From the sequence record OP168898.1: a stretch of DNA of 64,000 bases; one strand, given 5' to 3'. A model generated the notes under the pieces. That model had not been told where the DNA came from and made no database searches. It saw only the letters and a program-made list of their open reading frames with translations. The DNA comes from Escherichia phage ZCEC14. The position numbers and the translations under genes were made by a program. Positions 1-60,126 of the stretch are shown one piece after another. Each line of letters begins with the position of its first letter. Positions within the stretch are counted from its first letter, which is position 1.

Positions 1-57
1 ACGTGCGGTTCTTCGAGATGATGCTTCTCGTTTTGGTAAGCAGAAAGCATAAGTTGA

Positions 58-84
58 GGACTCCTTCGGGAGTCCTTTTTTATT
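58..84 (+). terminator. GC hairpin with UUCG loop followed by T-run (ggactcc-ttcg-ggagtcc-tttttt)
   Basis: Inverted repeat and T-tract read directly from sequence. Confidence 0.6.
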
Positions 85-105
85 TTCCAAAGACTGCACA
101 AAGTT

Positions 106-140
106 GTTTACAGTACGGTTCCTTTGTGATAGTATTATCT
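106..140 (+). promoter_or_regulatory. Early-type promoter cassette: GTTTAC -35-like box, then inverted repeat tttgtg/cacaaa spanning a gatagtatt -10-like element
   Basis: Motif shared with cassettes at 498, 57249, 57629, 57913 and 61276, each followed by ggagaataaaATG. Confidence 0.5.
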
Positions 141-162
141 TACACAAACAAAGGAGAATAAA

Positions 163-495
163 ATGAAAACTATTAATCTGAACGCTACAGTTAAAACTAA
201 ATGCTTCAATGGTAAATATAATGAAACTATGTGGTTCTTAATGGCAGTTGAAGGTGATATTATTGAAGTAGAAACAACAGAAGGTATGGGAACAGATTTC
301 ACCTTTACAATTCAAGTTCATAATTTCTTTACTGGTTGGATTTATGAATTGAATACAGTAATCGTTGGAAAAATTGAACAAAATGAATTAGGCGAATGGC
401 ATTATGTTACAGCTCGCCAACGTGCAGAACGTTTAATTGAGAAGATGAAAAAAGTTGGTAAACTTGACATGCAGCACTGGAAAGTAGTAAAATAA
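163..495 (+). CDS. Hypothetical small early protein (110 aa)
   Basis: ORF with RBS aaggagaataaaATG just downstream of promoter cassette. Confidence 0.6.
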   Translation: MKTINLNATVKTKCFNGKYNETMWFLMAVEGDIIEVETTEGMGTDFTFTIQVHNFFTGWIYELNTVIVGKIEQNELGEWHYVTARQRAERLIEKMKKVGKLDMQHWKVVK

Positions 496-497
496 TT

Positions 498-530
498 GTT
501 TACTTTGGTACAGGATATGATATTATATAC
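498..530 (+). promoter_or_regulatory. Early-type promoter cassette (GTTTAC then stem ggtacag/ctgtacc around gatattatat)
   Basis: Same architecture as cassette at 106. Confidence 0.45.
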
Positions 531-563
531 CTGTACCGCAATTAAACATCTCGGAGAATAAAA

Positions 564-929
564 ATGAACTACATCAACTTTGAACGTAAATATGTTTCTA
601 ATGGTATTGCAGGTTCTATTGATACCATCTGCCTTTGGAAACATCAAAATGGATCAGTATGCGAAATTGAACAGTATATGACTCCTAACTACGTTTATAT
701 GCGATTTGAAAATGGCATCACGGTTTCAATCACGAAAGAAGGTTCTTCCTTTAAAATCGCATTAGATGATGATTTCCGTCAACGTGATTTAGGTACTCAT
801 CCTTGTTGGAATGGCGTTAATCGCAAGCTTCTGGTTAAAACTTGGATTCGTCATATTCTGAGTAACAGAGCTAAACCTGAGCATCTTGAAGCAATCTTTG
901 ATGTAGTTCTTAACGAATTTGATATTTAA
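564..929 (+). CDS. Hypothetical protein (121 aa)
   Basis: ORF with RBS ggagaataaaaATG. Confidence 0.6.
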   Translation: MNYINFERKYVSNGIAGSIDTICLWKHQNGSVCEIEQYMTPNYVYMRFENGITVSITKEGSSFKIALDDDFRQRDLGTHPCWNGVNRKLLVKTWIRHILSNRAKPEHLEAIFDVVLNEFDI

Positions 930-940
930 AAAATAAATGA

Positions 941-954
941 GGGGCTTCGGCCCC
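941..954 (+). terminator. ggggc-ttcg-gcccc tetraloop hairpin (terminator or RNA-stability element; weak T-run)
   Basis: Inverted repeat in sequence after stop of 564..929. Confidence 0.4.
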
Positions 955-971
955 TTACTGAGGAAAATACT

Positions 972-1259
972 ATGTTTATGACTACTTATTTTGATACCCG
1001 TAAAAATTTCTGTGAAGTGGTTTTCTCAAAGGCGCCTAAAGGCCTTCCTGCTCATTTGCAACCTACCAGTGAATCGATTAAAAACTACGTTAATGTAGTA
1101 TGTCCTTTAGAGTTCCGTACTGTAAATGGACGTGATACTCTAGCAATCATTAAACTCAATCGTGAAATTGACATTGACCCTTCAATTGCGCGTGAAATTA
1201 ATATTTCTGACATTGGTGGTGGTAATGTTAAATCGCACGGATTTCAGATGAGGTTCTAA
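972..1259 (+). CDS. Hypothetical protein (95 aa)
   Basis: ORF, co-directional packing. Confidence 0.55.
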   Translation: MFMTTYFDTRKNFCEVVFSKAPKGLPAHLQPTSESIKNYVNVVCPLEFRTVNGRDTLAIIKLNREIDIDPSIAREINISDIGGGNVKSHGFQMRF

Positions 1260-1456
1260 TGAAATTCTTTTTGGGTCAAACTGTTGAATTAAAGGGAGTT
1301 GGTATACCTGGATTAATTTCTAAGGTTCTACCTCCATTTAAATGGAGTGGTATTCAAATAAAAGAGGCTTATATTGTTTCCTGGGTAGATGGAAATGAAG
1401 ACCTTCGTATGGGTGATGAATTATCTCCTATTTACGGATTAAAGGAATTAGTATGA
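1259..1456 (+). CDS. Hypothetical protein (65 aa)
   Basis: ORF with ATGA start/stop overlap with upstream gene. Confidence 0.5.
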   Translation: MKFFLGQTVELKGVGIPGLISKVLPPFKWSGIQIKEAYIVSWVDGNEDLRMGDELSPIYGLKELV

Positions 1457-1659
1457 ATATAATTAATAAGATTTTTGGAATTCAGTACATTAAGGTCACA
1501 TATAAAGTAACAGATAAAAATCCATATACTGATGAACACGAAGAACCACAAGTTGAATCTATTATATTAGAAAAGGACCCTAACTGGCCAGTTGAATTTC
1601 GTCTTCCTTGCTATGGTCATTGGGCTGATGTTGAAATTATAAGCATTGAAAATGTCTGA
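1453..1659 (+). CDS. Hypothetical protein (68 aa)
   Basis: ORF with ATGA overlap. Confidence 0.5.
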   Translation: MNIINKIFGIQYIKVTYKVTDKNPYTDEHEEPQVESIILEKDPNWPVEFRLPCYGHWADVEIISIENV

Positions 1660-2110
1660 GTTAGAGATTAGAAGTAATTTTAGATGGCCATCATGTGCAT
1701 TAAGTAATTTTGCCCAATGGCCTTTCGTTATGGATGGTATTCAATTTGGAGGTCTTGAAGGATTCCTCCAAGGGTGCAAGGTGAAAAATGTTGAACAACA
1801 ACGTCGTATATTTGGGTTATCCGGGCTTGCCGCCCAACAAGCTGGAAGGTCTTATGCTAGAGCTCAGGACCGTGGGACCCTCTTTTGGCTTGGAGTTCCG
1901 TTTTCAAGATACTCCCCGGCGTGGAAAGAATTATACACAAATGCATATTTTGAAGCAGCGATCCAAAACAAGGGCTTTCGTGATGCATTACAAGCCTCGA
2001 AAGGAAAAGTTTTGAAGCACAGCATGGCTAGTGGTCTAACAAAAGATGATACAATACTAACCGAAGCTGAATTTATTGATGTGTTAAACCTATTAAGAGA
2101 CTCTCTATGA
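1652..2110 (+). CDS. NADAR (DUF1768/YbiA-like) domain protein; ATG at 1652 preferred over the TTG at 1646 used by the ORF track
   Basis: Translation contains SNFAQWPFVMDGIQFGGLEGFLQGCK, resembling the NADAR core motif; locally GC-rich segment by eye. Confidence 0.55.
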   Translation: MSELEIRSNFRWPSCALSNFAQWPFVMDGIQFGGLEGFLQGCKVKNVEQQRRIFGLSGLAAQQAGRSYARAQDRGTLFWLGVPFSRYSPAWKELYTNAYFEAAIQNKGFRDALQASKGKVLKHSMASGLTKDDTILTEAEFIDVLNLLRDSL

Positions 2111-2952
2111 AGCCTACTATTTTAACTGATATTGATGGAGTATGTTTAAGCTGGCAATCAGGCCTTCCTTATTTTGCTCAGAAATATAATCTTCCGTTGG
2201 AACATATTTTAAAAATGATCCAGGATGAGAAATTTATTTCTCCAGGTAAACTCTTTAATTGTGATGAAGAACTTGGCGTCAAGTTAATTGAAAAATACAA
2301 TCGTTCAGATTTTATTCGTTACTTGTCTCCGTATAAAGATGCCCTGTGTGCAATTAACAAATTAAAAGAAGATTATAATTTTGTAGCTGTTACAGCATTG
2401 GGTGATTATATTGACGCTCTGTTGAATCGTCAATTTAATTTGAATGCTCTTTTTCCTGGTGCCTTCTCAGAAGTAATGATGTGTGGTCATGATTCTTCAA
2501 AAGAAGAGTTATTCAAAAAGGCAAAAGAGAAATATAACGTAATTTGTTATATTGACGATCTCGCTCATCACTGCGATCACGCGAGTGAAATATTAAATGT
2601 TCCTGTTTATTGGATGGCTCGAGGAGAGCGTGGCAATATTCCAAAAACTGCCCAGCGAGTTTATACATGGAATGATGTAGAAAATAAGCTTTTTTCGCCG
2701 AAGGAAAATAAAGAAAGTTTTGATAATGAAAAAGCTATAAAAGATGTAATTGAGAAGATGGTTAAAAACGATTCTTTTCCTTGGAACACTACCTGGAGAA
2801 CGCCTGGATTTAATCCTTATAATCCATATTATCTATATCATCCATATCAGACACATCCGTTTCAGACATGGAACTATATTAAACCTGGCGGCATAGAGTA
2901 TTTGTATAATAGACCTACTTGTGGTGATAATATTTTCCAAGGAGCATTCTAA
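2107..2952 (+). CDS. HAD-superfamily-like hydrolase (281 aa) with Pro/Tyr-rich C-terminal tail
   Basis: N-terminal DIDGV (DxDG motif I of HAD phosphatases); ATGA overlap with upstream gene. Confidence 0.5.
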   Translation: MKPTILTDIDGVCLSWQSGLPYFAQKYNLPLEHILKMIQDEKFISPGKLFNCDEELGVKLIEKYNRSDFIRYLSPYKDALCAINKLKEDYNFVAVTALGDYIDALLNRQFNLNALFPGAFSEVMMCGHDSSKEELFKKAKEKYNVICYIDDLAHHCDHASEILNVPVYWMARGERGNIPKTAQRVYTWNDVENKLFSPKENKESFDNEKAIKDVIEKMVKNDSFPWNTTWRTPGFNPYNPYYLYHPYQTHPFQTWNYIKPGGIEYLYNRPTCGDNIFQGAF

Positions 2953-3221
2953 TGTTTGTTGTTCACACTATTTATGAAAATGAAGGTAATACTACACGTG
3001 ATTACGGTCACGTAAATCAATTTTTTAGATGCAATCCAGAATTCCGAGCTCAAAAAGACGAACGAATTTTTAAAAAATGTGTGGAGCAAGGTTTCATTTA
3101 CGTCAAGCATTGGATGCAAGGAAATAAAGTTAGAACTACATATCATAGGTCTTTGACTGAGCTTAATGATGAATTGATTTATAATAGAGCTGTAAACCAA
3201 ACTCTAAAGGATGAACAATGA
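2952..3221 (+). CDS. Hypothetical protein (89 aa)
   Basis: ORF, translationally coupled to neighbours. Confidence 0.5.
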   Translation: MFVVHTIYENEGNTTRDYGHVNQFFRCNPEFRAQKDERIFKKCVEQGFIYVKHWMQGNKVRTTYHRSLTELNDELIYNRAVNQTLKDEQ

Positions 3222-4678
3222 TTCTTAAAATTCTGAACGAAATAGCATCTATTGGTTCAACTAAGCAGAAGCAAGCAATTCTTGAAAAGAATAAAGATAA
3301 TGAATTGCTTAAACGAGTATATCGTCTGACTTATTCTCGTGGGTTGCAATATTATATCAAGAAATGGCCTAAACCTGGTATTGCTACCCAGAGTTTTGGA
3401 ATGTTGACTCTTACCGATATGCTTGACTTCATTGAATTCACGTTAGCTACTCGGAAATTGACCGGAAATGCGGCAATTGAGGAATTAACTGGATATATCA
3501 CCGATGGTAAAAAGGATGATGTTGAAGTTTTGCGTCGAGTTATGATGCGAGACCTTGAATGTGGTGCTTCAGTATCTATTGCAAACAAAGTTTGGCCAGG
3601 TTTAATTCCTGAACAACCTCAAATGCTGGCAAGTTCTTATGATGAAAAAGGCATTAGTAAGAATATCAAATTTCCAGCCTTTGCACAGTTAAAAGCAGAT
3701 GGAGCTCGGTGTTTTGCTGAAGTTAGAGGTGATGAATTAGATGATGTTCGTCTTTTATCACGAGCTGGTAATGAATATCTAGGATTAGATCTTCTTAAGG
3801 AAGAGTTAATCAAAATGACTGCTGAAGCCCGCCAGATTCATCCAGAAGGTGTGTTAATCGATGGTGAATTGGTATACCATGAGCAAGTTGAAAAGGAGCC
3901 AGAAGGCCTAGATTTTCTTTTTGGCACTCCTGAAATTAGTAAAGCTAAAGAATTCGCCGAAGTAGCTGAATCTCGTACTGCTTCTAATGGAATCGCCAAT
4001 AAATCTTTAAAGGGAACTATTTCAGAAAAAGAAGCACAATGTATGAAGTTTCAGGTCTGGGATTATGTTCCGTTAGTAGAAATATACGGTCTTCCGACGT
4101 TTCGTTTAAAATATGATGTACGTTTTTCTAAACTAGAACAAATGACATCAGGATATGATAAAGTAATTTTAATTGAAAACCAGCTAGTAAATAACCTAGA
4201 TGAAGCTAAGGTAATTTATAAAAAGTATATTGACCAGGGTCTTGAAGGTATTATTCTCAAAAATACCGATGGATTGTGGGAAAATGCTCGTTCAAAAAAT
4301 CTCTATAAATTTAAAGAAGTAATTGATGTTGATTTAAAAATTGTAGGAATTTATCCTCACCGTAAAGACCCTACTAAAGCGGGTGGATTTATTCTTGAAT
4401 CAGAGTGTGGAAAAATTAAAGTCAATGCTGGCTCAGGTTTAAAAGATAAAGCTGGTGTAAAATCGCATGAACTTGACCGTACTCGTATTATGGAAAACCA
4501 AAATTATTATATTGGAAAAATTCTAGAGTGCGAATGCAACGGTTGGTTAAAATCTGACGGCCGCACTGATTACGTTAAATTATTTCTTCCGATTGCGATT
4601 CGTTTACGTGAAGATAAAACTAAAGCTAATACATTCGAAGATGTATTTGGTGATTTTCATGAGGTAACTGGTCTATGA
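3218..4678 (+). CDS. 30: ATP-dependent DNA ligase (T4 gp30-like, 486 aa)
   Basis: Length and N-terminus match T4 DNA ligase as recalled; adenylation motif KADGAR present. Confidence 0.9.
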   Translation: MILKILNEIASIGSTKQKQAILEKNKDNELLKRVYRLTYSRGLQYYIKKWPKPGIATQSFGMLTLTDMLDFIEFTLATRKLTGNAAIEELTGYITDGKKDDVEVLRRVMMRDLECGASVSIANKVWPGLIPEQPQMLASSYDEKGISKNIKFPAFAQLKADGARCFAEVRGDELDDVRLLSRAGNEYLGLDLLKEELIKMTAEARQIHPEGVLIDGELVYHEQVEKEPEGLDFLFGTPEISKAKEFAEVAESRTASNGIANKSLKGTISEKEAQCMKFQVWDYVPLVEIYGLPTFRLKYDVRFSKLEQMTSGYDKVILIENQLVNNLDEAKVIYKKYIDQGLEGIILKNTDGLWENARSKNLYKFKEVIDVDLKIVGIYPHRKDPTKAGGFILESECGKIKVNAGSGLKDKAGVKSHELDRTRIMENQNYYIGKILECECNGWLKSDGRTDYVKLFLPIAIRLREDKTKANTFEDVFGDFHEVTGL

Positions 4679-4863
4679 AAGCTTACTTAGAAACAATTGT
4701 TATAGCTCAAAAAGAAGGTGGAGATGTTTCTACTTCTGTATCACAAGTCATTCTCGAATTTGTAGATGCGTATGCTTATAATAAATTTACAGAAACATTT
4801 GATGCCTACGAAAAAGGTCCAAAGTTTGAAATATATCGTACTCTCTTACCATTAGATTATTAA
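4675..4863 (+). CDS. Hypothetical protein (62 aa)
   Basis: ORF overlapping ligase stop (ATGA). Confidence 0.45.
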   Translation: MKAYLETIVIAQKEGGDVSTSVSQVILEFVDAYAYNKFTETFDAYEKGPKFEIYRTLLPLDY

Positions 4864-4885
4864 AGGCCTTCGGGCCTTTAATTTT
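4862..4885 (+). terminator. aaaggcc-ttcg-ggccttt hairpin plus T-run
   Basis: Inverted repeat in sequence. Confidence 0.55.
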
Positions 4886-4892
4886 ATAAATA
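4885..4892 (+). promoter_or_regulatory. T4 late promoter core TATAAATA upstream of alt
   Basis: Exact TATAAATA about 24 nt upstream of ATG 4916. Confidence 0.5.
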
Positions 4893-4915
4893 GAATAAAC
4901 ACTAGAGAGGATATG

Positions 4916-7009
4916 ATGGAACTTATTACAGAATTATTTGACGAAGATACTACTCTTCCGATTACAAACTTAAATCCAAAGAAGAAAATACCGCAAATTT
5001 TTTCAGTTCATGTTGATGATGCAATTGAACAACCAGGCTTTCGTTTATGTACCTATACATCTGGAGGTGATACTAACCGTGATTTAAAGATGGGCGATAA
5101 AATGATGCACATTGTTCCTTTTACACTAACTGCTAAAGGTTCAATTGCTAAATTAAAAGGTCTCGGTCCAAGCCCAATTAATTACATCAATTCAGTTTTT
5201 ACTGTTGCAATGCAAACAATGCGTCAGTATAAAATTGATGCCTGTATGCTTCGTATTCTTAAGTCTAAAACTGCTGGTCAAGCTCGACAAATTCAAGTTA
5301 TTGCTGATAGACTTATCCGTAGTCGTTCAGGTGGCAGATACGTCCTTCTTAAGGAACTCTGGGACTATGATAAAAAGTATGCATATATTCTTATACATCG
5401 CAAAAATGTATCACTAGAAGACATTCCAGGAGTTCCGGAAATTAGTACCGAGCTCTTTACTAAAGTTGAATCGAAGGTCGGCGATGTTTATATCAATAAA
5501 GATACCGGAGCTCAAGTAACTAAAAATGAGGCAATTGCAGCATCTATTGCACAAGAAAATGATAAACGTTCTGACCAAGCTGTTATTGTTAAAGTTAAAA
5601 TTTCCCGTAGAGCAATTGCGCAAAGTCAATCATTAGAATCTTCTAGATTTGAAAGTGAATTATTCCAGAAGTATGAATCTACCGCAGCTAATTTTAATAA
5701 ACCTGCTACCGCTCCTTTAATTCCCGAAGCAGAAGAAATGAAGCTTGGAATTAATTCATTAGCTTCTAAAACTAAGGCAGCAAAAATTATTGCTGAAGGA
5801 ACTGCAAATGAACTTCACTATGACTATAAATTCTTTTCAAAAAGTGAGGTTGATGAAGTTTCTGAAAAAATTAAAGATGTAATTCTTAATGCGATTAAAA
5901 ATGAACCAACTACTTCAATAAAATGTTTAGAGAAATACGCAGCAGCTGTTAATAAATTCTTTGAAGAATATAAAGATAATTGGCTTGATAAACATAATAA
6001 AACCCGTAAAGGACAGCCAGATGAAGTCTGGGAAGAAATAACTAAAAATTCCTGGAACGCAGCAAAAACTAAATTCCTCAAACGAATGATTTATAGTTTT
6101 TCTGGAATTGGTGCAGGTCCAATGATTGATATTACTATTGCCCGTGATGGTTCTAAATATACTCCATCACAAAAGCGCGGCATTAGAGAATATTGTGGAT
6201 CAGGATATACTGACATCAATAATCTTCTTTTAGGCCGCTACAATCCAGAACGATATGATGTAATGAGTGAAAAAGAAATTGAATCTGCGATAAATAATTT
6301 AGATTCAGCTTTTGAAAATGGTGATCGTATACCAGAAGGCATTACAGTTTATCGTGCTCAAAGCATGACTGCTCCTATATACGAAGCACTAGTTAAAAAT
6401 AAAGTGTTCTATTTCAGAAATTTTGTATCTACTTCTTTAACTCCTATCATTTTTGGACGTTTTGGAATTACACATGCTGGTATCGGTCTTTTAGAACCAG
6501 AAGCTCGCAATGAATTAACAGTTGATAAAAATGAAGAAGGAATAACTATTAATCCAAACGAAATAAGAGCGTATAAAGAAAATCCTGAATACGTTAAAGT
6601 TCAAATAGGATGGGCAATTGATGGAGCTCATAAAGTTAATGTTGTATATCCAGGAAGTCTCGGAATAGCAACAGAAGCTGAAGTTATTCTACCGCGCGGA
6701 TTGATGGTCAAAGTTAATAAAATAACTGATGCTTCTAATAATGACGGAACAACATCTAATAATACAAAACTCATTCAAGCTGAAGTTATGACTACGGAAG
6801 AACTCACCGAATCAGTAATTTATGACGGTGACCGTCTAATGGAAACTGGCGAAGTAGTTGCAATGACAGGTGATATTGAAATAGAAGACAGAGTTGACTT
6901 TGCATCATTTGTTTCATCAAATGTTAAACAGAAAGTAGAATCATCTCTTGGAATTATTGCGTCTTGCATAGATATTACAAACATGCCTTACAAGTTCGTT
7001 CAAGGATAA
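4916..7009 (+). CDS. alt: Alt-like ADP-ribosyltransferase, copy 1 (697 aa from ATG 4916)
   Basis: N-terminus MELITELFDE (capsid-targeting/gp21-cleavage-like); C-terminal R...STS...EAE (VYRAQ, FVSTSL, EAEVILPRG) ART signature. Confidence 0.85.
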   Translation: MELITELFDEDTTLPITNLNPKKKIPQIFSVHVDDAIEQPGFRLCTYTSGGDTNRDLKMGDKMMHIVPFTLTAKGSIAKLKGLGPSPINYINSVFTVAMQTMRQYKIDACMLRILKSKTAGQARQIQVIADRLIRSRSGGRYVLLKELWDYDKKYAYILIHRKNVSLEDIPGVPEISTELFTKVESKVGDVYINKDTGAQVTKNEAIAASIAQENDKRSDQAVIVKVKISRRAIAQSQSLESSRFESELFQKYESTAANFNKPATAPLIPEAEEMKLGINSLASKTKAAKIIAEGTANELHYDYKFFSKSEVDEVSEKIKDVILNAIKNEPTTSIKCLEKYAAAVNKFFEEYKDNWLDKHNKTRKGQPDEVWEEITKNSWNAAKTKFLKRMIYSFSGIGAGPMIDITIARDGSKYTPSQKRGIREYCGSGYTDINNLLLGRYNPERYDVMSEKEIESAINNLDSAFENGDRIPEGITVYRAQSMTAPIYEALVKNKVFYFRNFVSTSLTPIIFGRFGITHAGIGLLEPEARNELTVDKNEEGITINPNEIRAYKENPEYVKVQIGWAIDGAHKVNVVYPGSLGIATEAEVILPRGLMVKVNKITDASNNDGTTSNNTKLIQAEVMTTEELTESVIYDGDRLMETGEVVAMTGDIEIEDRVDFASFVSSNVKQKVESSLGIIASCIDITNMPYKFVQG

Positions 7010-7012
7010 ATC

Positions 7013-9070
7013 ATGGAACTTATTACAGAATTATTTGACGGCGCTTCGGCGCCGGTTGTTAACTTAAATCCTAAGCATAAAATACCTCAAATTTTTGCTA
7101 TTCAAGCCGGCGAAGAAAGCGTGCTTCCTGGATTTAGATTTTGTACATACACCTCTGGTGGTGATACAAATAAAAACGTTAAGCCAGGTGATAAAATGAT
7201 GCATATCGTAATGATAGGTGTCAATGAGAAACTATCATTAGTTAAACTTAAAAACTTGGGTGGAAATCCAATTGGTGTCATTAATGCTGTTTTTGATACT
7301 GCTCTTCAAACAATGAAACAATATAAAATCGACGCATGCCTATTCCGCGTACTAAAAAGTAAAACAAATGGCGCAGCTCGTCAAATGCAAGTTATTGCTG
7401 ACCGTTTAGTACGTACTAAAGGAGCAGGTCGTTATGTTCTTTTAAAGGAAATCTGGGACTATGATAAAAAGTATGCATATATTATGGTTTACCGTAAAAA
7501 TGCCAATTTAGAAGACATTCCAGGTGTACCTCCTATTTCAACTGAGTTATTCACAAAAGTTGAATCGAAGGTCGGTGATGTTTATGTAGACGTTAAAACA
7601 GGTAATGCTGTTCCTAAAGCTGTCGCTGTTGCTGCTTCTATTGCTTTAGAAAATGATAAACGTACTGACCAAGCGGTTATTCAGAAAACTAAAATTAGTC
7701 GTCGATTAGCAGCGCAAGCTCAATATTCTACTGTCGATGCTTCACTTCAGGGTGATAGCTTCGCTGCCAAGAAATATCAAGAGTTTGAATCTAAAGTTCC
7801 GGTATATAAAGCAGAAGGACCAATGAACTCTGGCGTTATTCAGATTGGTTCAAACTTCAGCAAAGGAGCTATCGGTGGTATGAGGAGTGCTTCTCGTTTT
7901 AAATCTAACGATTATGAACTAGAAAACTTCCGAAATCATATTGCATTAGCCCATGCGCGTTTACGTGATCCATCTATCAAGTTGCAGAGCGATATAACAT
8001 ATCAAGGTTCTCAAGAATATTTAAAGAATAAAGAATTCTTTGATTATAAAACTGATAAAATTTTAAGCGATCTTGCTGATATTAATATTTCTAATAGCTT
8101 TGATGTTATTAAGAAAATTATCAATGATTTGGTTAAAGGTTCTAAAGCTACGCCAGATGAAAAGACAGCTATTATTCAATTTGTAATGAATGGCATTTAT
8201 AAATTGATTAATGAATCTGCTGCTCAGGCGTATGAATATGCAAGTACTGAAGTAACTCCAAAAGGATTAACTCAGGCTGAATCTGACGTAATTGAAGATT
8301 ATTGTGCTGATTCATATGTTGAAATGAACTCGTTCCTTTTGGGTAAACCAGATTCTACCCGTGAAGAATATATGGAACGAGCTATTAAACACATCGAGAC
8401 GTTGGATTCTGCCTTTGCCAAAGGATCAGTTCTTCCTCCAGGAACTACGCTTTATCGCGGACAAGAAGTTACATTTAAAACTTTGCGTCATAACATTGAA
8501 AATAAAATGTTCTATTTCAAGAACTTCGTATCCACATCGCTTAAACCAAATATCTTCGGTGAGCATGGTAAAAACTATATGGCTCTAGATGATTCCGGCG
8601 CAGTATTTTCTGGTGAAGGAGAAGGTTCCGTTGATGCAGAAGATTTGATGCATATGGGTAGTCATTCTACATATGCTAATGAAGATGCTGAAACTAGCGT
8701 GGGTATGGTAATTAAAGGAGCTGAACGAATCAAAGTTATCGTTCCAGGTCATTTATCAGGATTTCCATCAGAAGCTGAAGTTATTCTACCACGTGGAATT
8801 TTACTGAAGATTAATAAAGTAAGTACGTACTTTATGAAAGAAACTGCTTATAACAAGTATCTAATCGAAGGTACAATCGTTCCTCCTTCCGAACAATTAG
8901 AAGAATCGGTATATGATGGTGACCATCTGATGGAAACTGGTGAAGTTCGTCCAATGACTGGATTTAACCAATTCCTTGTAGAAGAATCAAAAGAAGAGGA
9001 AAACGAAGTTTCTCAAATCTTGGCTTCTTTGGTTAACATCAACGGAATGTCTAAAAAGTTCAAGATGTAG
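7013..9070 (+). CDS. Alt-like ADP-ribosyltransferase, copy 2 (685 aa), diverged paralog
   Basis: Same N-terminus MELITELFDG and same R/STS/EAEVILPRG motifs; middle region diverged from copy 1. Confidence 0.8.
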   Translation: MELITELFDGASAPVVNLNPKHKIPQIFAIQAGEESVLPGFRFCTYTSGGDTNKNVKPGDKMMHIVMIGVNEKLSLVKLKNLGGNPIGVINAVFDTALQTMKQYKIDACLFRVLKSKTNGAARQMQVIADRLVRTKGAGRYVLLKEIWDYDKKYAYIMVYRKNANLEDIPGVPPISTELFTKVESKVGDVYVDVKTGNAVPKAVAVAASIALENDKRTDQAVIQKTKISRRLAAQAQYSTVDASLQGDSFAAKKYQEFESKVPVYKAEGPMNSGVIQIGSNFSKGAIGGMRSASRFKSNDYELENFRNHIALAHARLRDPSIKLQSDITYQGSQEYLKNKEFFDYKTDKILSDLADINISNSFDVIKKIINDLVKGSKATPDEKTAIIQFVMNGIYKLINESAAQAYEYASTEVTPKGLTQAESDVIEDYCADSYVEMNSFLLGKPDSTREEYMERAIKHIETLDSAFAKGSVLPPGTTLYRGQEVTFKTLRHNIENKMFYFKNFVSTSLKPNIFGEHGKNYMALDDSGAVFSGEGEGSVDAEDLMHMGSHSTYANEDAETSVGMVIKGAERIKVIVPGHLSGFPSEAEVILPRGILLKINKVSTYFMKETAYNKYLIEGTIVPPSEQLEESVYDGDHLMETGEVRPMTGFNQFLVEESKEEENEVSQILASLVNINGMSKKFKM

Positions 9071-24626: not shown

Positions 24627-26192
24627 TTAGATACCTTTAACATATACACGGCGGAAGTAAGCGTTTTTACCAAGGCTATTCAGAATAGAAGGCATACCGC
24701 TCTGGATGCGAGAAGCCGGAGCCTGAGCAGCGGATTCTGCAAATGGGTTGATACCGATACCGTAACGAGTTTTGAATCCCATTACCGGTTGGAAGTTCTT
24801 CGGATCGGAACCACGCAGCGGAGTCAGAGCTACATATGGAGCATAGTAAATACCAGCATCCATTTCATTCGGACCTTTATAACCTACAGTGAAATAATCC
24901 TGTTTAGCATACTGGTCGATATATACACGGTATTTACCACCCAGAACACCAGCAAATACTGACTTGGTAGTATCAGTGTTAAAGCCAGTAGCCAGACCCT
25001 GTGCAGCATAAGAAATGCCAGTATCAACTGAAGCCAGAACGTTAACTACGTTACGGGAAGCGATAATGAAGTTACCTTCGCCACGACCGGTCTGACGAGC
25101 AATTTCAACTGCTTCTTTGTCAATCTGGAACAACAGAGCTTTAAAGGATTCACCTGCCCAGCGAGCACCACGAATATCGATTGGGTCCTGGAAGTCAAAT
25201 ACACCAGCTTTAGAACCCGGAGTCAGGGTCATACCAGATTTACCAACCTGAGCTGAGTAGTTAATCCAATCAACAACTTCACGGTTGATTTCCAGCATAA
25301 TTTCTGTAGCCAGAATACCAGACAGTTCAGCATCAGCATCCATACCGTGAACAGCGCGGAGGTCTTGTGCTAATTCGATAGAGTAAGCAGCTTTCAGCTG
25401 GCGAGATTTAGCTTCGATAACTTGTTTATCGATACGGAAGCCCATTTCATTCCATGGGTTATCGGTAGAACCATTGAAACCTTCCTGGAGTTCAGCGATA
25501 GAAGTAGCCATACCTTCAGCGATTTCTACTAGTGCACCAGCTTCCATTTGTTTCTTAACTTCGGCATCTAATTTAGCAGCATCAGTCGCGCTAGAACCAA
25601 GTGTTACGACAGCAGAAGCTTGCAGATATACGGTACCAGTTTCCTGGAAGAAGTGAGAATAAATGTCACCTACTACTGTAGTGGTATTAGCAGCCAGAGC
25701 TGGGAATTTCTTAGCAGCACCCTGACCAGAGAACATTGCATCTGGACCATACATTGGGTGGAATGCTTCTTTAGCACCGGCAGCCACCGGATCTTTACCA
25801 TATACTGCACGCAGTGCGAATACCTGGCCAGTCGGGCTGTTCATCGGCTGAACACCGCAAATATCGAAAGCAATCAGGTTAGGAATAGCACGACGTACCA
25901 TACCCATAACAGCTGGGCCAATCTGAGTTACTGCGCCAGAAGTCTGACCTGCAGCGATGTTGGTAGCATTGTAACCGTGGTCACCGCCGATTTCAGCTTC
26001 TGTTAAGAAAGAACCGAATGCCTGAGCAATTTTTTCGTCTTTATATTCCGGAGCTGTCTGGAAATCTTTTTCCTGGTTTTCAAAGATTTTAGCGATAATC
26101 GCTTGTTTGCTATTAGCAATTTCCGGTAAACCTTCACCTTCCAGTAATGGCTTCCATTTGTTCAAAAGTTCAGCTTTAGTTTTGATAGTCAT
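24627..26192 (-). CDS. 23: Major capsid protein gp23 (521 aa)
   Basis: N-terminus MTIKTKAELLNKWKPLLEGEG... matches T4 gp23 as recalled. Confidence 0.95.
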   Translation of the reverse strand: MTIKTKAELLNKWKPLLEGEGLPEIANSKQAIIAKIFENQEKDFQTAPEYKDEKIAQAFGSFLTEAEIGGDHGYNATNIAAGQTSGAVTQIGPAVMGMVRRAIPNLIAFDICGVQPMNSPTGQVFALRAVYGKDPVAAGAKEAFHPMYGPDAMFSGQGAAKKFPALAANTTTVVGDIYSHFFQETGTVYLQASAVVTLGSSATDAAKLDAEVKKQMEAGALVEIAEGMATSIAELQEGFNGSTDNPWNEMGFRIDKQVIEAKSRQLKAAYSIELAQDLRAVHGMDADAELSGILATEIMLEINREVVDWINYSAQVGKSGMTLTPGSKAGVFDFQDPIDIRGARWAGESFKALLFQIDKEAVEIARQTGRGEGNFIIASRNVVNVLASVDTGISYAAQGLATGFNTDTTKSVFAGVLGGKYRVYIDQYAKQDYFTVGYKGPNEMDAGIYYAPYVALTPLRGSDPKNFQPVMGFKTRYGIGINPFAESAAQAPASRIQSGMPSILNSLGKNAYFRRVYVKGI

Positions 26193-59092: not shown

Positions 59093-59166
<74 letters not shown>

Positions 59167-59176
59167 ATTTAATTTA

Positions 59177-59250
59177 CTCCGTGTAGCTCAGTTTGGTAGA
59201 GCGCCTGATTTGGGATCAGGAGGTCCAAGGTTCAAATCCTTGTATGGAGA
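59177..59250 (+). tRNA. tRNA-Pro (anticodon UGG)
   Basis: Anticodon stem cctga/tcagg, loop tttggga; T-arm ggttcaaatcc. Confidence 0.8.
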
Positions 59251-59252
59251 CT

Positions 59253-59342
59253 GGAGGCGTGGCAGAGTGGTTTAATGCACCGGTCTTGAAAACCGGCAGT
59301 CGCTCCGGCGACTCATAGGTTCAAATCCTATCGCCTCCGCCA
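59253..59342 (+). tRNA. tRNA-Ser (anticodon UGA), long variable arm
   Basis: Acceptor ggaggcg/cgcctcc, anticodon stem ccggt/accgg, loop cttgaaa. Confidence 0.85.
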
Positions 59343-59347
59343 GTTTT

Positions 59348-59423
59348 GCTGATTTAGCTCAGTAGGTAGAGCAACTCACTTGTAATGAGAAGGTCGGCGG
59401 TTCGATTCCGTCAATCAGCACCA
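59348..59423 (+). tRNA. tRNA-Thr (anticodon UGU)
   Basis: Acceptor gctgatt/aatcagc, anticodon loop cttgtaa. Confidence 0.85.
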
Positions 59424-59424
59424 A

Positions 59425-59499
59425 GGCCCTGTAGCTGGAAGGTTCAAGCAAGCGACTCATAATCGCCAGATGGTGGTTCAATTCCACCCAGGGCCACCA
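59425..59499 (+). tRNA. tRNA with CAU anticodon (Ile2-type if lysidine-modified, otherwise Met)
   Basis: Acceptor ggccctg/cagggcc, anticodon loop ctcataa. Confidence 0.75.
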
Positions 59500-59511
59500 A
59501 ATTATGAATTA

Positions 59512-59598
59512 GGGGAGTTATCCCGTAGAGGTAGCGGTGTGGACTGTAAATCCATTGTCATTGCGACTCGGGTGGTTCGACTCCATCACTCCCCACCA
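59512..59598 (+). tRNA. tRNA-Tyr (anticodon GUA), long variable arm
   Basis: Acceptor ggggagt/actcccc, anticodon stem tgga/tcca, loop ctgtaaa. Confidence 0.75.
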
Positions 59599-59602
59599 AT
59601 TT

Positions 59603-59677
59603 GGATGTGTAGCTCAATGGCAGAGCGATCGCCTGTTAAGCGATTGGTTATAGGTTCGAATCCTATCACGTCCGCCA
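59603..59677 (+). tRNA. tRNA-Asn (anticodon GUU)
   Basis: Acceptor ggatgtg/cacgtcc (G-U pair), anticodon loop ctgttaa, T-arm ggttcgaatcc. Confidence 0.75.
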
Positions 59678-59681
59678 AATC

Positions 59682-59757
59682 CGAGGCATAGCTCAGAAGG
59701 AAGAGCAAGGACCTTCTAAGTCCTGGGTCGTAGGTTCGATCCCTACTGCCTCGACCA
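59682..59757 (+). tRNA. tRNA-Arg (anticodon UCU)
   Basis: Acceptor cgaggca/tgcctcg, anticodon stem ggacc/gtcc, loop ttctaag. Confidence 0.8.
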
Positions 59758-59775
59758 ATTATAAGTGAGGAAAAT

Positions 59776-60126
59776 ATGAAAGGTAATGTTTATTTAGTAG
59801 TTCATGATTTAACATTCTATTTTAATCATAATGATACTGTTATTTCTGAACGTGTAATTAATTTACTTTATCAGCATGCAGATTATGTTTATGTTGAAAA
59901 CGAATTTGGACATTGGCAATTTATTAAAAATCGTTCATTTGGTTTAGATGGTTACGAATATTTTGAACGTAAAGACCTTTTAGATAAAATTCCGTTATCT
60001 ACACAATATCAAAATCATAAGTCTTTATATAAATGTCGGCTAATTCGAAATGCTGAATCTGCGTATGAAGCAATTGATTTATGGCGTAAACGCCGTGAAC
60101 AGATTGATGCTTTAAAAGAATATTAA
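59776..60126 (+). CDS. Hypothetical protein (116 aa)
   Basis: ORF with RBS gaggaaaatATG directly after tRNA cluster. Confidence 0.55.
   Translation: MKGNVYLVVHDLTFYFNHNDTVISERVINLLYQHADYVYVENEFGHWQFIKNRSFGLDGYEYFERKDLLDKIPLSTQYQNHKSLYKCRLIRNAESAYEAIDLWRKRREQIDALKEY

Follow-up and report, generated by a model that had tools for sequence, protein, structure and literature searches.

What a protein with a NADAR-like core does in a phage genome is the question raised by a short open reading frame (ORF) of Escherichia phage ZCEC14, found at positions 1652–2110 of the plus strand in a stretch of 64,000 nucleotides (OP168898.1; this whole stretch is called the window in the following). An earlier reading of the bare sequence, hereafter the original prediction, had placed the ORF upstream of a HAD-like hydrolase, of DNA ligase, and of the Alt genes, and had seen in it either a counter-defense against DarTG or a regulator of phage-driven ADP-ribosylation. 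It had also asked whether the 30.x genes of T4 include this ORF. They do: the ORF is almost certainly adfN, that is, gene 30.3 of T4, a gene already known and characterized, and published work on the T4 protein supports the first of the two roles.

Identity and fold of the adfN product

The gene and the parts of it that bear on its function are the following.

1652–2110, plus strand: adfN (T4 gene 30.3), coding for a putative orphan NADAR-fold DNA ADP-ribosylglycohydrolase of 152 residues, as suggested by identity with T4, Pfam PF08010, and the predicted fold.
1757–1780, plus strand: codons of the catalytic Glu36 (GAA, 1757–1759) and Lys43 (AAG, 1778–1780), within the EGFLQGCK motif, as read from the sequence.
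2018–2020, plus strand: codon of His123 (CAC), in the last β-strand, as read from the sequence; a marker of the phage (gp30.3) clade.
2063–2107, plus strand: codons of residues 138–152 (the last 15), which include the C-terminal helix (138–151 in the model) and are lost in the RB69 allele.

The ORF starts at an ATG, as does gene 30.3 in the T4 annotation; if the TTG at 1646, two codons earlier, were used, the product would have 154 residues. The protein is identical to T4 gp30.3 at 151 of 152 positions (99%), the sole difference being the conservative substitution I125M, and the DNA of the gene is 98.7% identical to that of T4. The C-terminus is that of T4 AdfN, and the full length of 152 residues is kept. 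Among Pfam families, the protein matches PF08010 (Phage_30_3) with an E value of 2.2e-70 and 235 bits, for a cutoff of 36. The peptide that had drawn attention to the ORF, SNFAQWPFVMDGIQFGGLEGFLQGCK, is indeed present and corresponds to residues 18–43. The window gene and T4 adfN thus share their length, their slot between 30.4 and 30.2, their active-site residues, and an intact C-terminal helix.

The surroundings tell the same story. The first 5 kb of the window match hundreds of Tequatrovirus (T4-like) genomes, with a best DNA identity of 96.9%, and the order of genes is that of the minus strand of T4, namely 30.8, 30.7, 30.6, 30.5, 30.4, 30.3, 30.2, 30.1, 30 (DNA ligase), alt.1, and alt. 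Judged by its sequence, the window is a Tequatrovirus genome, of a phage that differs from T4 in having two Alt paralogs instead of one.

The NADAR-like fold that had been read from the core motif is confirmed by structure prediction. An AlphaFold2 model based on an alignment (A1) of 72 homologs of the gp30.3 family has a predicted local distance difference test score (pLDDT) of 93 and a predicted template modeling score of 0.88. When compared with the PDB using Foldseek, its top three matches are all NADARs: YbiA (2b3w), PnNADAR of Phytophthora (8bau), and GlNADAR of Geobacter (8bat), with probabilities of 1.00, 1.00, and 0.97, and every match beyond these has a probability of at most 0.07. 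The family profile, searched against PDB sequences, also has YbiA as its best match (E = 0.008), on the very motif that the original prediction had picked out, and it pairs EGFLQGCK with SEHYFQAQKF of YbiA. A Glu and a Lys seven residues apart are the hallmark of NADARs (E88 and K95 in the E. coli C7 NADAR), and both are present here: E36 is found in all 72 family members and K43 in at least 90% of them. The third active-site residue is Glu in YbiA-type NADARs, Asp in the BC4488/DarG1 type, and His in those of phages (PMC11125620). In our alignment, H123 is invariant, and in the model it sits in a strand spanning residues 120–123, while a helix at 138–151 closes the chain intact. In conclusion, the fold search, the family-level profile links, and the literature place the adfN product in the NADAR superfamily, and the PF08010 match, the last-strand His, and the full C-terminal helix place it in the phage gp30.3/AdfN clade.

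Action against DarTG1

DarTG1 resistance of T-even phages was mapped to gene 30.3, which was renamed adfN for anti-DarT factor NADAR (Johannesman et al., Nat Commun 2025, PMC11825919). Deletions of adfN in T4 and T2 fail to plaque on DarTG1 hosts, and adfN supplied in trans rescues RB69, a DarTG1-sensitive phage in which a frameshift has removed the last 15 residues of the native protein; a truncation of the RB69 type engineered into T4 AdfN lowers its activity, and the E36A and K43A substitutions weaken it (PMC11825919). Purified T4 AdfN strips ADP-ribose from DarT1-modified DNA, and it has no activity on thymine-linked ADP-ribose, nor is it effective against DarTG2, whose target is thymine (PMC11825919). 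Hydrolysis of guanine-linked ADP-ribose by T4 gp30.3 in vitro had been shown earlier by Schuller and colleagues (PMC11125620). In an independent transposon screen of T4, HIDEN-SEQ (bioRxiv 10.1101/2025.11.20.689424), gene 30.3 is dispensable on K-12 and lost on DarTG1, where its log2 fold change is −7.25 (q = 0). The idea of an anti-DarTG counter-defense is thus borne out, since plaque, deletion, complementation, and in vitro data have been published for a T4 protein 99% identical to the one encoded in the window (PMC11825919, PMC11125620). Because the full C-terminal helix is kept, the window allele would be active too.

According to the proposed mechanism, a stand-alone ("orphan") NADAR-fold enzyme would be made from the 30.x block, which continues into the ligase gene. 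This enzyme would hydrolyze the N-glycosidic bond of guanine-linked ADP-ribose, the mark left by DarT1, using Glu36, Lys43, and His123. Hydrolysis would free ADP-ribose, restore the guanine, and let replication proceed.

The closest functional parallel is DarG1, the antitoxin of DarTG1 itself, which belongs to the BC4488 clade (e.g., the Geobacter lovleyi NADAR, 8bat). DarG1 has the same fold as AdfN, and it shares with T4 AdfN the same chemistry, the hydrolysis of guanine-N2-linked ADP-ribose on DNA. The differences are that no DarT gene lies next to the window gene, that His takes the place of Asp as the third active-site residue, and that T4 AdfN cannot substitute for the antitoxin in uninfected cells (PMC11825919, PMC11125620). 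The genes flanking adfN are 30.4 and 30.2, and the only ADP-ribosyltransferases nearby are of the Alt type. Hence, adfN codes for an orphan enzyme and not for a DarTG1 antitoxin.

Some observations weigh against this interpretation. The window protein has no direct match with the Pfam NADAR family (PF08719), even at E ≤ 10. The original prediction had proposed this very profile search and had said that the lack of a significant hit would count against a NADAR; taken literally, the search gave that outcome. NCBIfam (E ≤ 10) and a phmmer search of PDB sequences returned no NADAR either, and at E ≤ 10 Pfam gave Phage_30_3, the other matches being of the kind expected by chance. The missing PF08719 match arises because in Pfam the phage clade has a family of its own, PF08010; 10 of the 72 family members do match PF08719, with a best E value of 1.5e-7. 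Next, outside infection T4 AdfN fails to protect E. coli from DarT1, and it barely rescues T5 or Bas25 (PMC11825919, PMC11125620). The mechanism just described is thus not complete, and some context specific to T-even phages is needed. Finally, the experiments concern the T4 protein, and it is from near identity of sequence that the I125M variant of the window may be expected to act alike.

The resemblance to YbiA raises the issue of the substrate. E. coli YbiA (2b3w; PF08719) is the best structural match (TM-score 0.69) and the best profile match, on the motif SNFA...E...Q..K, and one could conceive that the main substrates are soluble ADP-ribose derivatives that serve as immune signals, or that they are reactive riboflavin intermediates, as in the case of YbiA, with DNA repair being secondary. 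Yet identity between the two proteins is only about 16%, the window protein itself lies below the PF08719 threshold, and in its active site the third residue is His where the YbiA clade has a last-strand Glu; YbiA is linked to N-glycosidase activity on riboflavin intermediates. Furthermore, the T4 protein removes ADP-ribose from DNA in vitro, and the phenotype of its loss is complete and specific on DarTG1. Soluble molecules are therefore very unlikely to be the main substrates, and the removal of ADP-ribose from guanine in DNA is the preferred function of AdfN.

The GC-rich patch

The gene contains a stretch of unusual composition.

1772–1921, either strand: GC-rich patch within adfN, with a guanine plus cytosine (GC) content of 0.52, in the top 0.35% of segments of 150 nucleotides.

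When GC content is computed in sliding segments of this length, the mean over the window is 0.359, with a standard deviation of 0.050. The elevated GC reported at about 1790–1930 is therefore real, and what has to be weighed is the hint of a foreign origin that was drawn from it. One may suppose that the patch is the trace of a recent horizontal transfer of adfN, or of part of it, from a GC-richer source, and this would be in line with the proposal of Johannesman et al. (PMC11825919) that the phage clade originated from DarG1-like bacterial NADARs. The patch does stand well above the background of 0.36. Also, in 5,000 synonymous recodings of the AdfN protein using the codon usage of neighboring genes, the expected GC of the patch is 0.46 ± 0.02, and the observed value is higher (P = 0.005).

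Other observations speak against it. Between 1790 and 1930, GC is 0.62 at first, 0.55 at second, and 0.38 at third codon positions, so that the rise is mainly at positions 1 and 2. Of the excess of 0.16, some 0.10 (about 60%) is due to a protein segment rich in Gly, Ala, Arg, and Pro, and about 0.06 is left unexplained. Every one of the Tevenvirinae alleles compared, including those with DNA identity as low as about 80%, has the patch, which is therefore old. Distant members of the family are not GC-richer than their own flanks (+0.012 ± 0.026). Nor is adfN exceptional within the window, since the other strongest GC peaks (0.54–0.55) are in the major capsid gene and the tRNA cluster (25661–26043 and 59146–59776). 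Hence, a recent acquisition is unlikely, and the patch, which for the most part reflects amino acid composition, points only weakly to a foreign source.

Gene neighborhood in T-even and distant phages

The genes around and within adfN are the following.

1453–1659, plus strand: gene 30.4, 68 residues, phrog_2042, from the T4 annotation; its last 8 nucleotides overlap the start of adfN.
1788–2015, plus strand: ORF 30.3', 75 residues, in the +1 frame within adfN, annotated in T4 and identified by T4 homology.
2107–2952, plus strand: gene 30.2, 281 residues, with a HAD-superfamily hydrolase core (residues 1 to about 200) and a disordered tail (residues about 222–281), from motifs and model.
2952–3221, plus strand: gene 30.1, DUF3045 (Pfam PF11243, E = 3e-64).
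3218–4678, plus strand: gene 30, ATP-dependent DNA ligase (Pfam PF01068, DNA_ligase_A_M; T4 synteny).
4913–7009 and 7013–9070, plus strand: two tandem Alt-type ADP-ribosyltransferase genes (Pfam PF03496, ADPrib_exo_Tox, on both).

The position upstream of ligase and of the Alt genes is thus as originally described, and so is the HAD-like nature of the next ORF. The N-terminus of gp30.2, MKPTILTDIDGV, is HAD motif I, and the protein is 96% identical to T4 gp30.2, with an insertion of three residues in the tail. No model of Pfam or NCBIfam matches it, and a literature search on gp30.2 returned nothing relevant. Among 84 homologs, D8, D10, and K132 are invariant and T96, D150, and D151 are conserved in at least 90%, so that motifs I (DxD), II (S/T), III (K), and IV (DD) are all present. 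The model has a core (residues 1 to about 200) with pLDDT above 90, predicted to consist of a Rossmannoid domain and a helical cap, followed by a disordered tail rich in aromatic residues, Pro, and Asn. These four motifs and the core with its cap are shared with HAD subfamily I (C1 cap), which includes the 5'(3')-deoxyribonucleotidases (cdN/mdN, 2jao), whereas the extra disordered tail of about 60–80 residues, aromatic and Pro-rich, is not. The sole match of gp30.2 among PDB sequences is also the cytosolic 5'(3')-deoxyribonucleotidase cdN, and it falls short of significance (E = 0.37 and 0.08). We conclude that gp30.2 is a HAD-type hydrolase, most likely a phosphatase. The tail itself (residues about 222–281, window positions 2770–2949 on the plus strand) is rich in Tyr, Pro, Asn, His, and Trp (NPYNPYYLYHPYQTHPFQTWNY...), and many homologs of gp30.2 have about 200 residues, match only the first 68% or so, and appear to be tail-less.

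The stop codon of adfN and the start codon of 30.2 overlap as ATGA, and the adjacency of the two genes is conserved in T-even-like phages. Together with the T-even-specific requirement reported for AdfN (PMC11825919), this could suggest a two-enzyme module in which the HAD protein is the extra T-even factor that AdfN needs. Such a partnership is contradicted by the T4 transposon data on DarTG1, where 30.2 is neutral (log2 fold change −0.12, p = 0.61, 71 TA sites) while 30.3 is lost (bioRxiv 10.1101/2025.11.20.689424). It is also contradicted by the distribution of the two genes: of the 79 full IMG/VR loci that carry a 30.3-family gene, no more than 20 have a homolog of 30.2 at a distance of 3 kb or less, about 59 have none in that range, and three more distant contexts have no such homolog near the 30.3-family gene. 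Among the 20 loci, all but one (L040, where the match is weak) have the T4-like gene order. Because gp30.2 is neutral on DarTG1 and absent from most 30.3-family neighborhoods, we reject it as a partner of AdfN; the module is extremely improbable, and gp30.2 is a neighbor by synteny, not a functional partner in the anti-DarTG1 role.

The Alt genes invite a similar argument. They begin about 2.8 kb downstream of adfN, and T4-like NADARs were reported to be expressed early together with ADP-ribosyltransferases (Iyer et al. 2022). One could imagine that the NADAR tunes the ADP-ribosylation carried out by the phage itself, reversing the marks of Alt, ModA, or ModB, and that this accounts for its location near the alt genes. 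The substrates do not fit, as the NADARs tested, including the T4 protein, hydrolyze guanine-linked and not thymine-linked ADP-ribose on DNA (PMC11825919, PMC11125620), whereas Alt is annotated as an ADP-ribosyltransferase of protein (RNA polymerase). Genetics does not fit either: gene 30.3 is dispensable on plain K-12, and on DarTG1 hosts T4 is unaffected by the disruption of alt, modA, or modB (bioRxiv 10.1101/2025.11.20.689424). In the same T4 screen, nudE and adfA/61.2 are likewise neutral on DarTG1. Moreover, of 80 loci with a 30.3-family gene, just 13 have Alt at a distance of 3 kb or less, and each of these is T-even-like. The regulatory role that had been considered for this NADAR finds no support here and is most improbable. 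Since both 30.2 and Alt are found near few genes of the family, the neighborhood of adfN reflects T-even synteny rather than a family-wide module, and defense against DarTG1 is the role we retain.

The two Alt-type genes of the window are 41% identical to each other. The first one (4913–7009) is nearer to the single Alt of T4, with 71% identity over the N-terminal 501 residues, as against 43% for the second. This divergence contrasts with that of the flanking DNA, which is about 97% identical to that of other Tequatroviruses.

Gene 30.4, the 3' end of which contains the start of adfN in an overlap of 8 nucleotides, is another candidate for the T-even-specific context. In T4, insertions in 30.4 are mildly depleted on DarTG1 (log2 fold change −1.79, q = 0.014), and among the DarTG1 rows examined from that screen this is the only gene other than 30.3 to be significantly depleted (bioRxiv 10.1101/2025.11.20.689424). 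The depletion has a simpler reading, namely, polarity or damage to the start region of adfN inside 30.4, and gp30.4 is unlikely to be a helper of AdfN. Co-conservation of gp30.4 with the 30.3 family was considered and rejected, as its jackhmmer matches are confined to the closest T-even loci.

ORF 30.3' is identical to T4 gp30.3' at 74 of 75 residues, and a Shine-Dalgarno-like site, AAGGTG, is found just upstream of it. An open +1 frame as long as 30.3' arises in 25% of the synonymous recodings of adfN (P = 0.25), so that its length is unremarkable. Its start is changed from ATG to ACG in one relative (L010) whose AdfN is 100% identical, and in another (L020) the frame contains an in-frame stop. 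Hence, the sequence offers no support for 30.3' as a real overlapping gene.

Upstream of this block, a strong terminator-like hairpin is found at 56–77 on the plus strand, 5' of gene 30.8 (GAGGACTCC TTCG GGAGTCCTT followed by a T-run), and another hairpin occurs at 940–955 of the minus strand, between 30.7 and 30.6. A scan of positions 1–5000 for promoters and terminators gave no more sites than in shuffled sequence.

Outside T-even phages, members of the 30.3 family are found in very different surroundings. Two metagenome contigs of 308 and 30 kb (L002 and L003), likely from a jumbo-phage context, encode 30.3-family NADARs with about 39% identity to the window protein. In both, the gene is 2.6 kb from a NUDIX gene, which in L002 is followed by a Thg1-like gene, and it has no HAD, ligase, or Alt neighbor. 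Further members of the family occur on viral contigs of 250–424 kb.

The anti-DarTG1 role of this gene has been established for T4 since 2024–2025, and the window adds another adfN allele, one substitution away from the characterized one. Through AdfN, phages counter a toxin–antitoxin defense with an orphan relative of its own antitoxin, repairing the ADP-ribosylated guanines in their DNA.

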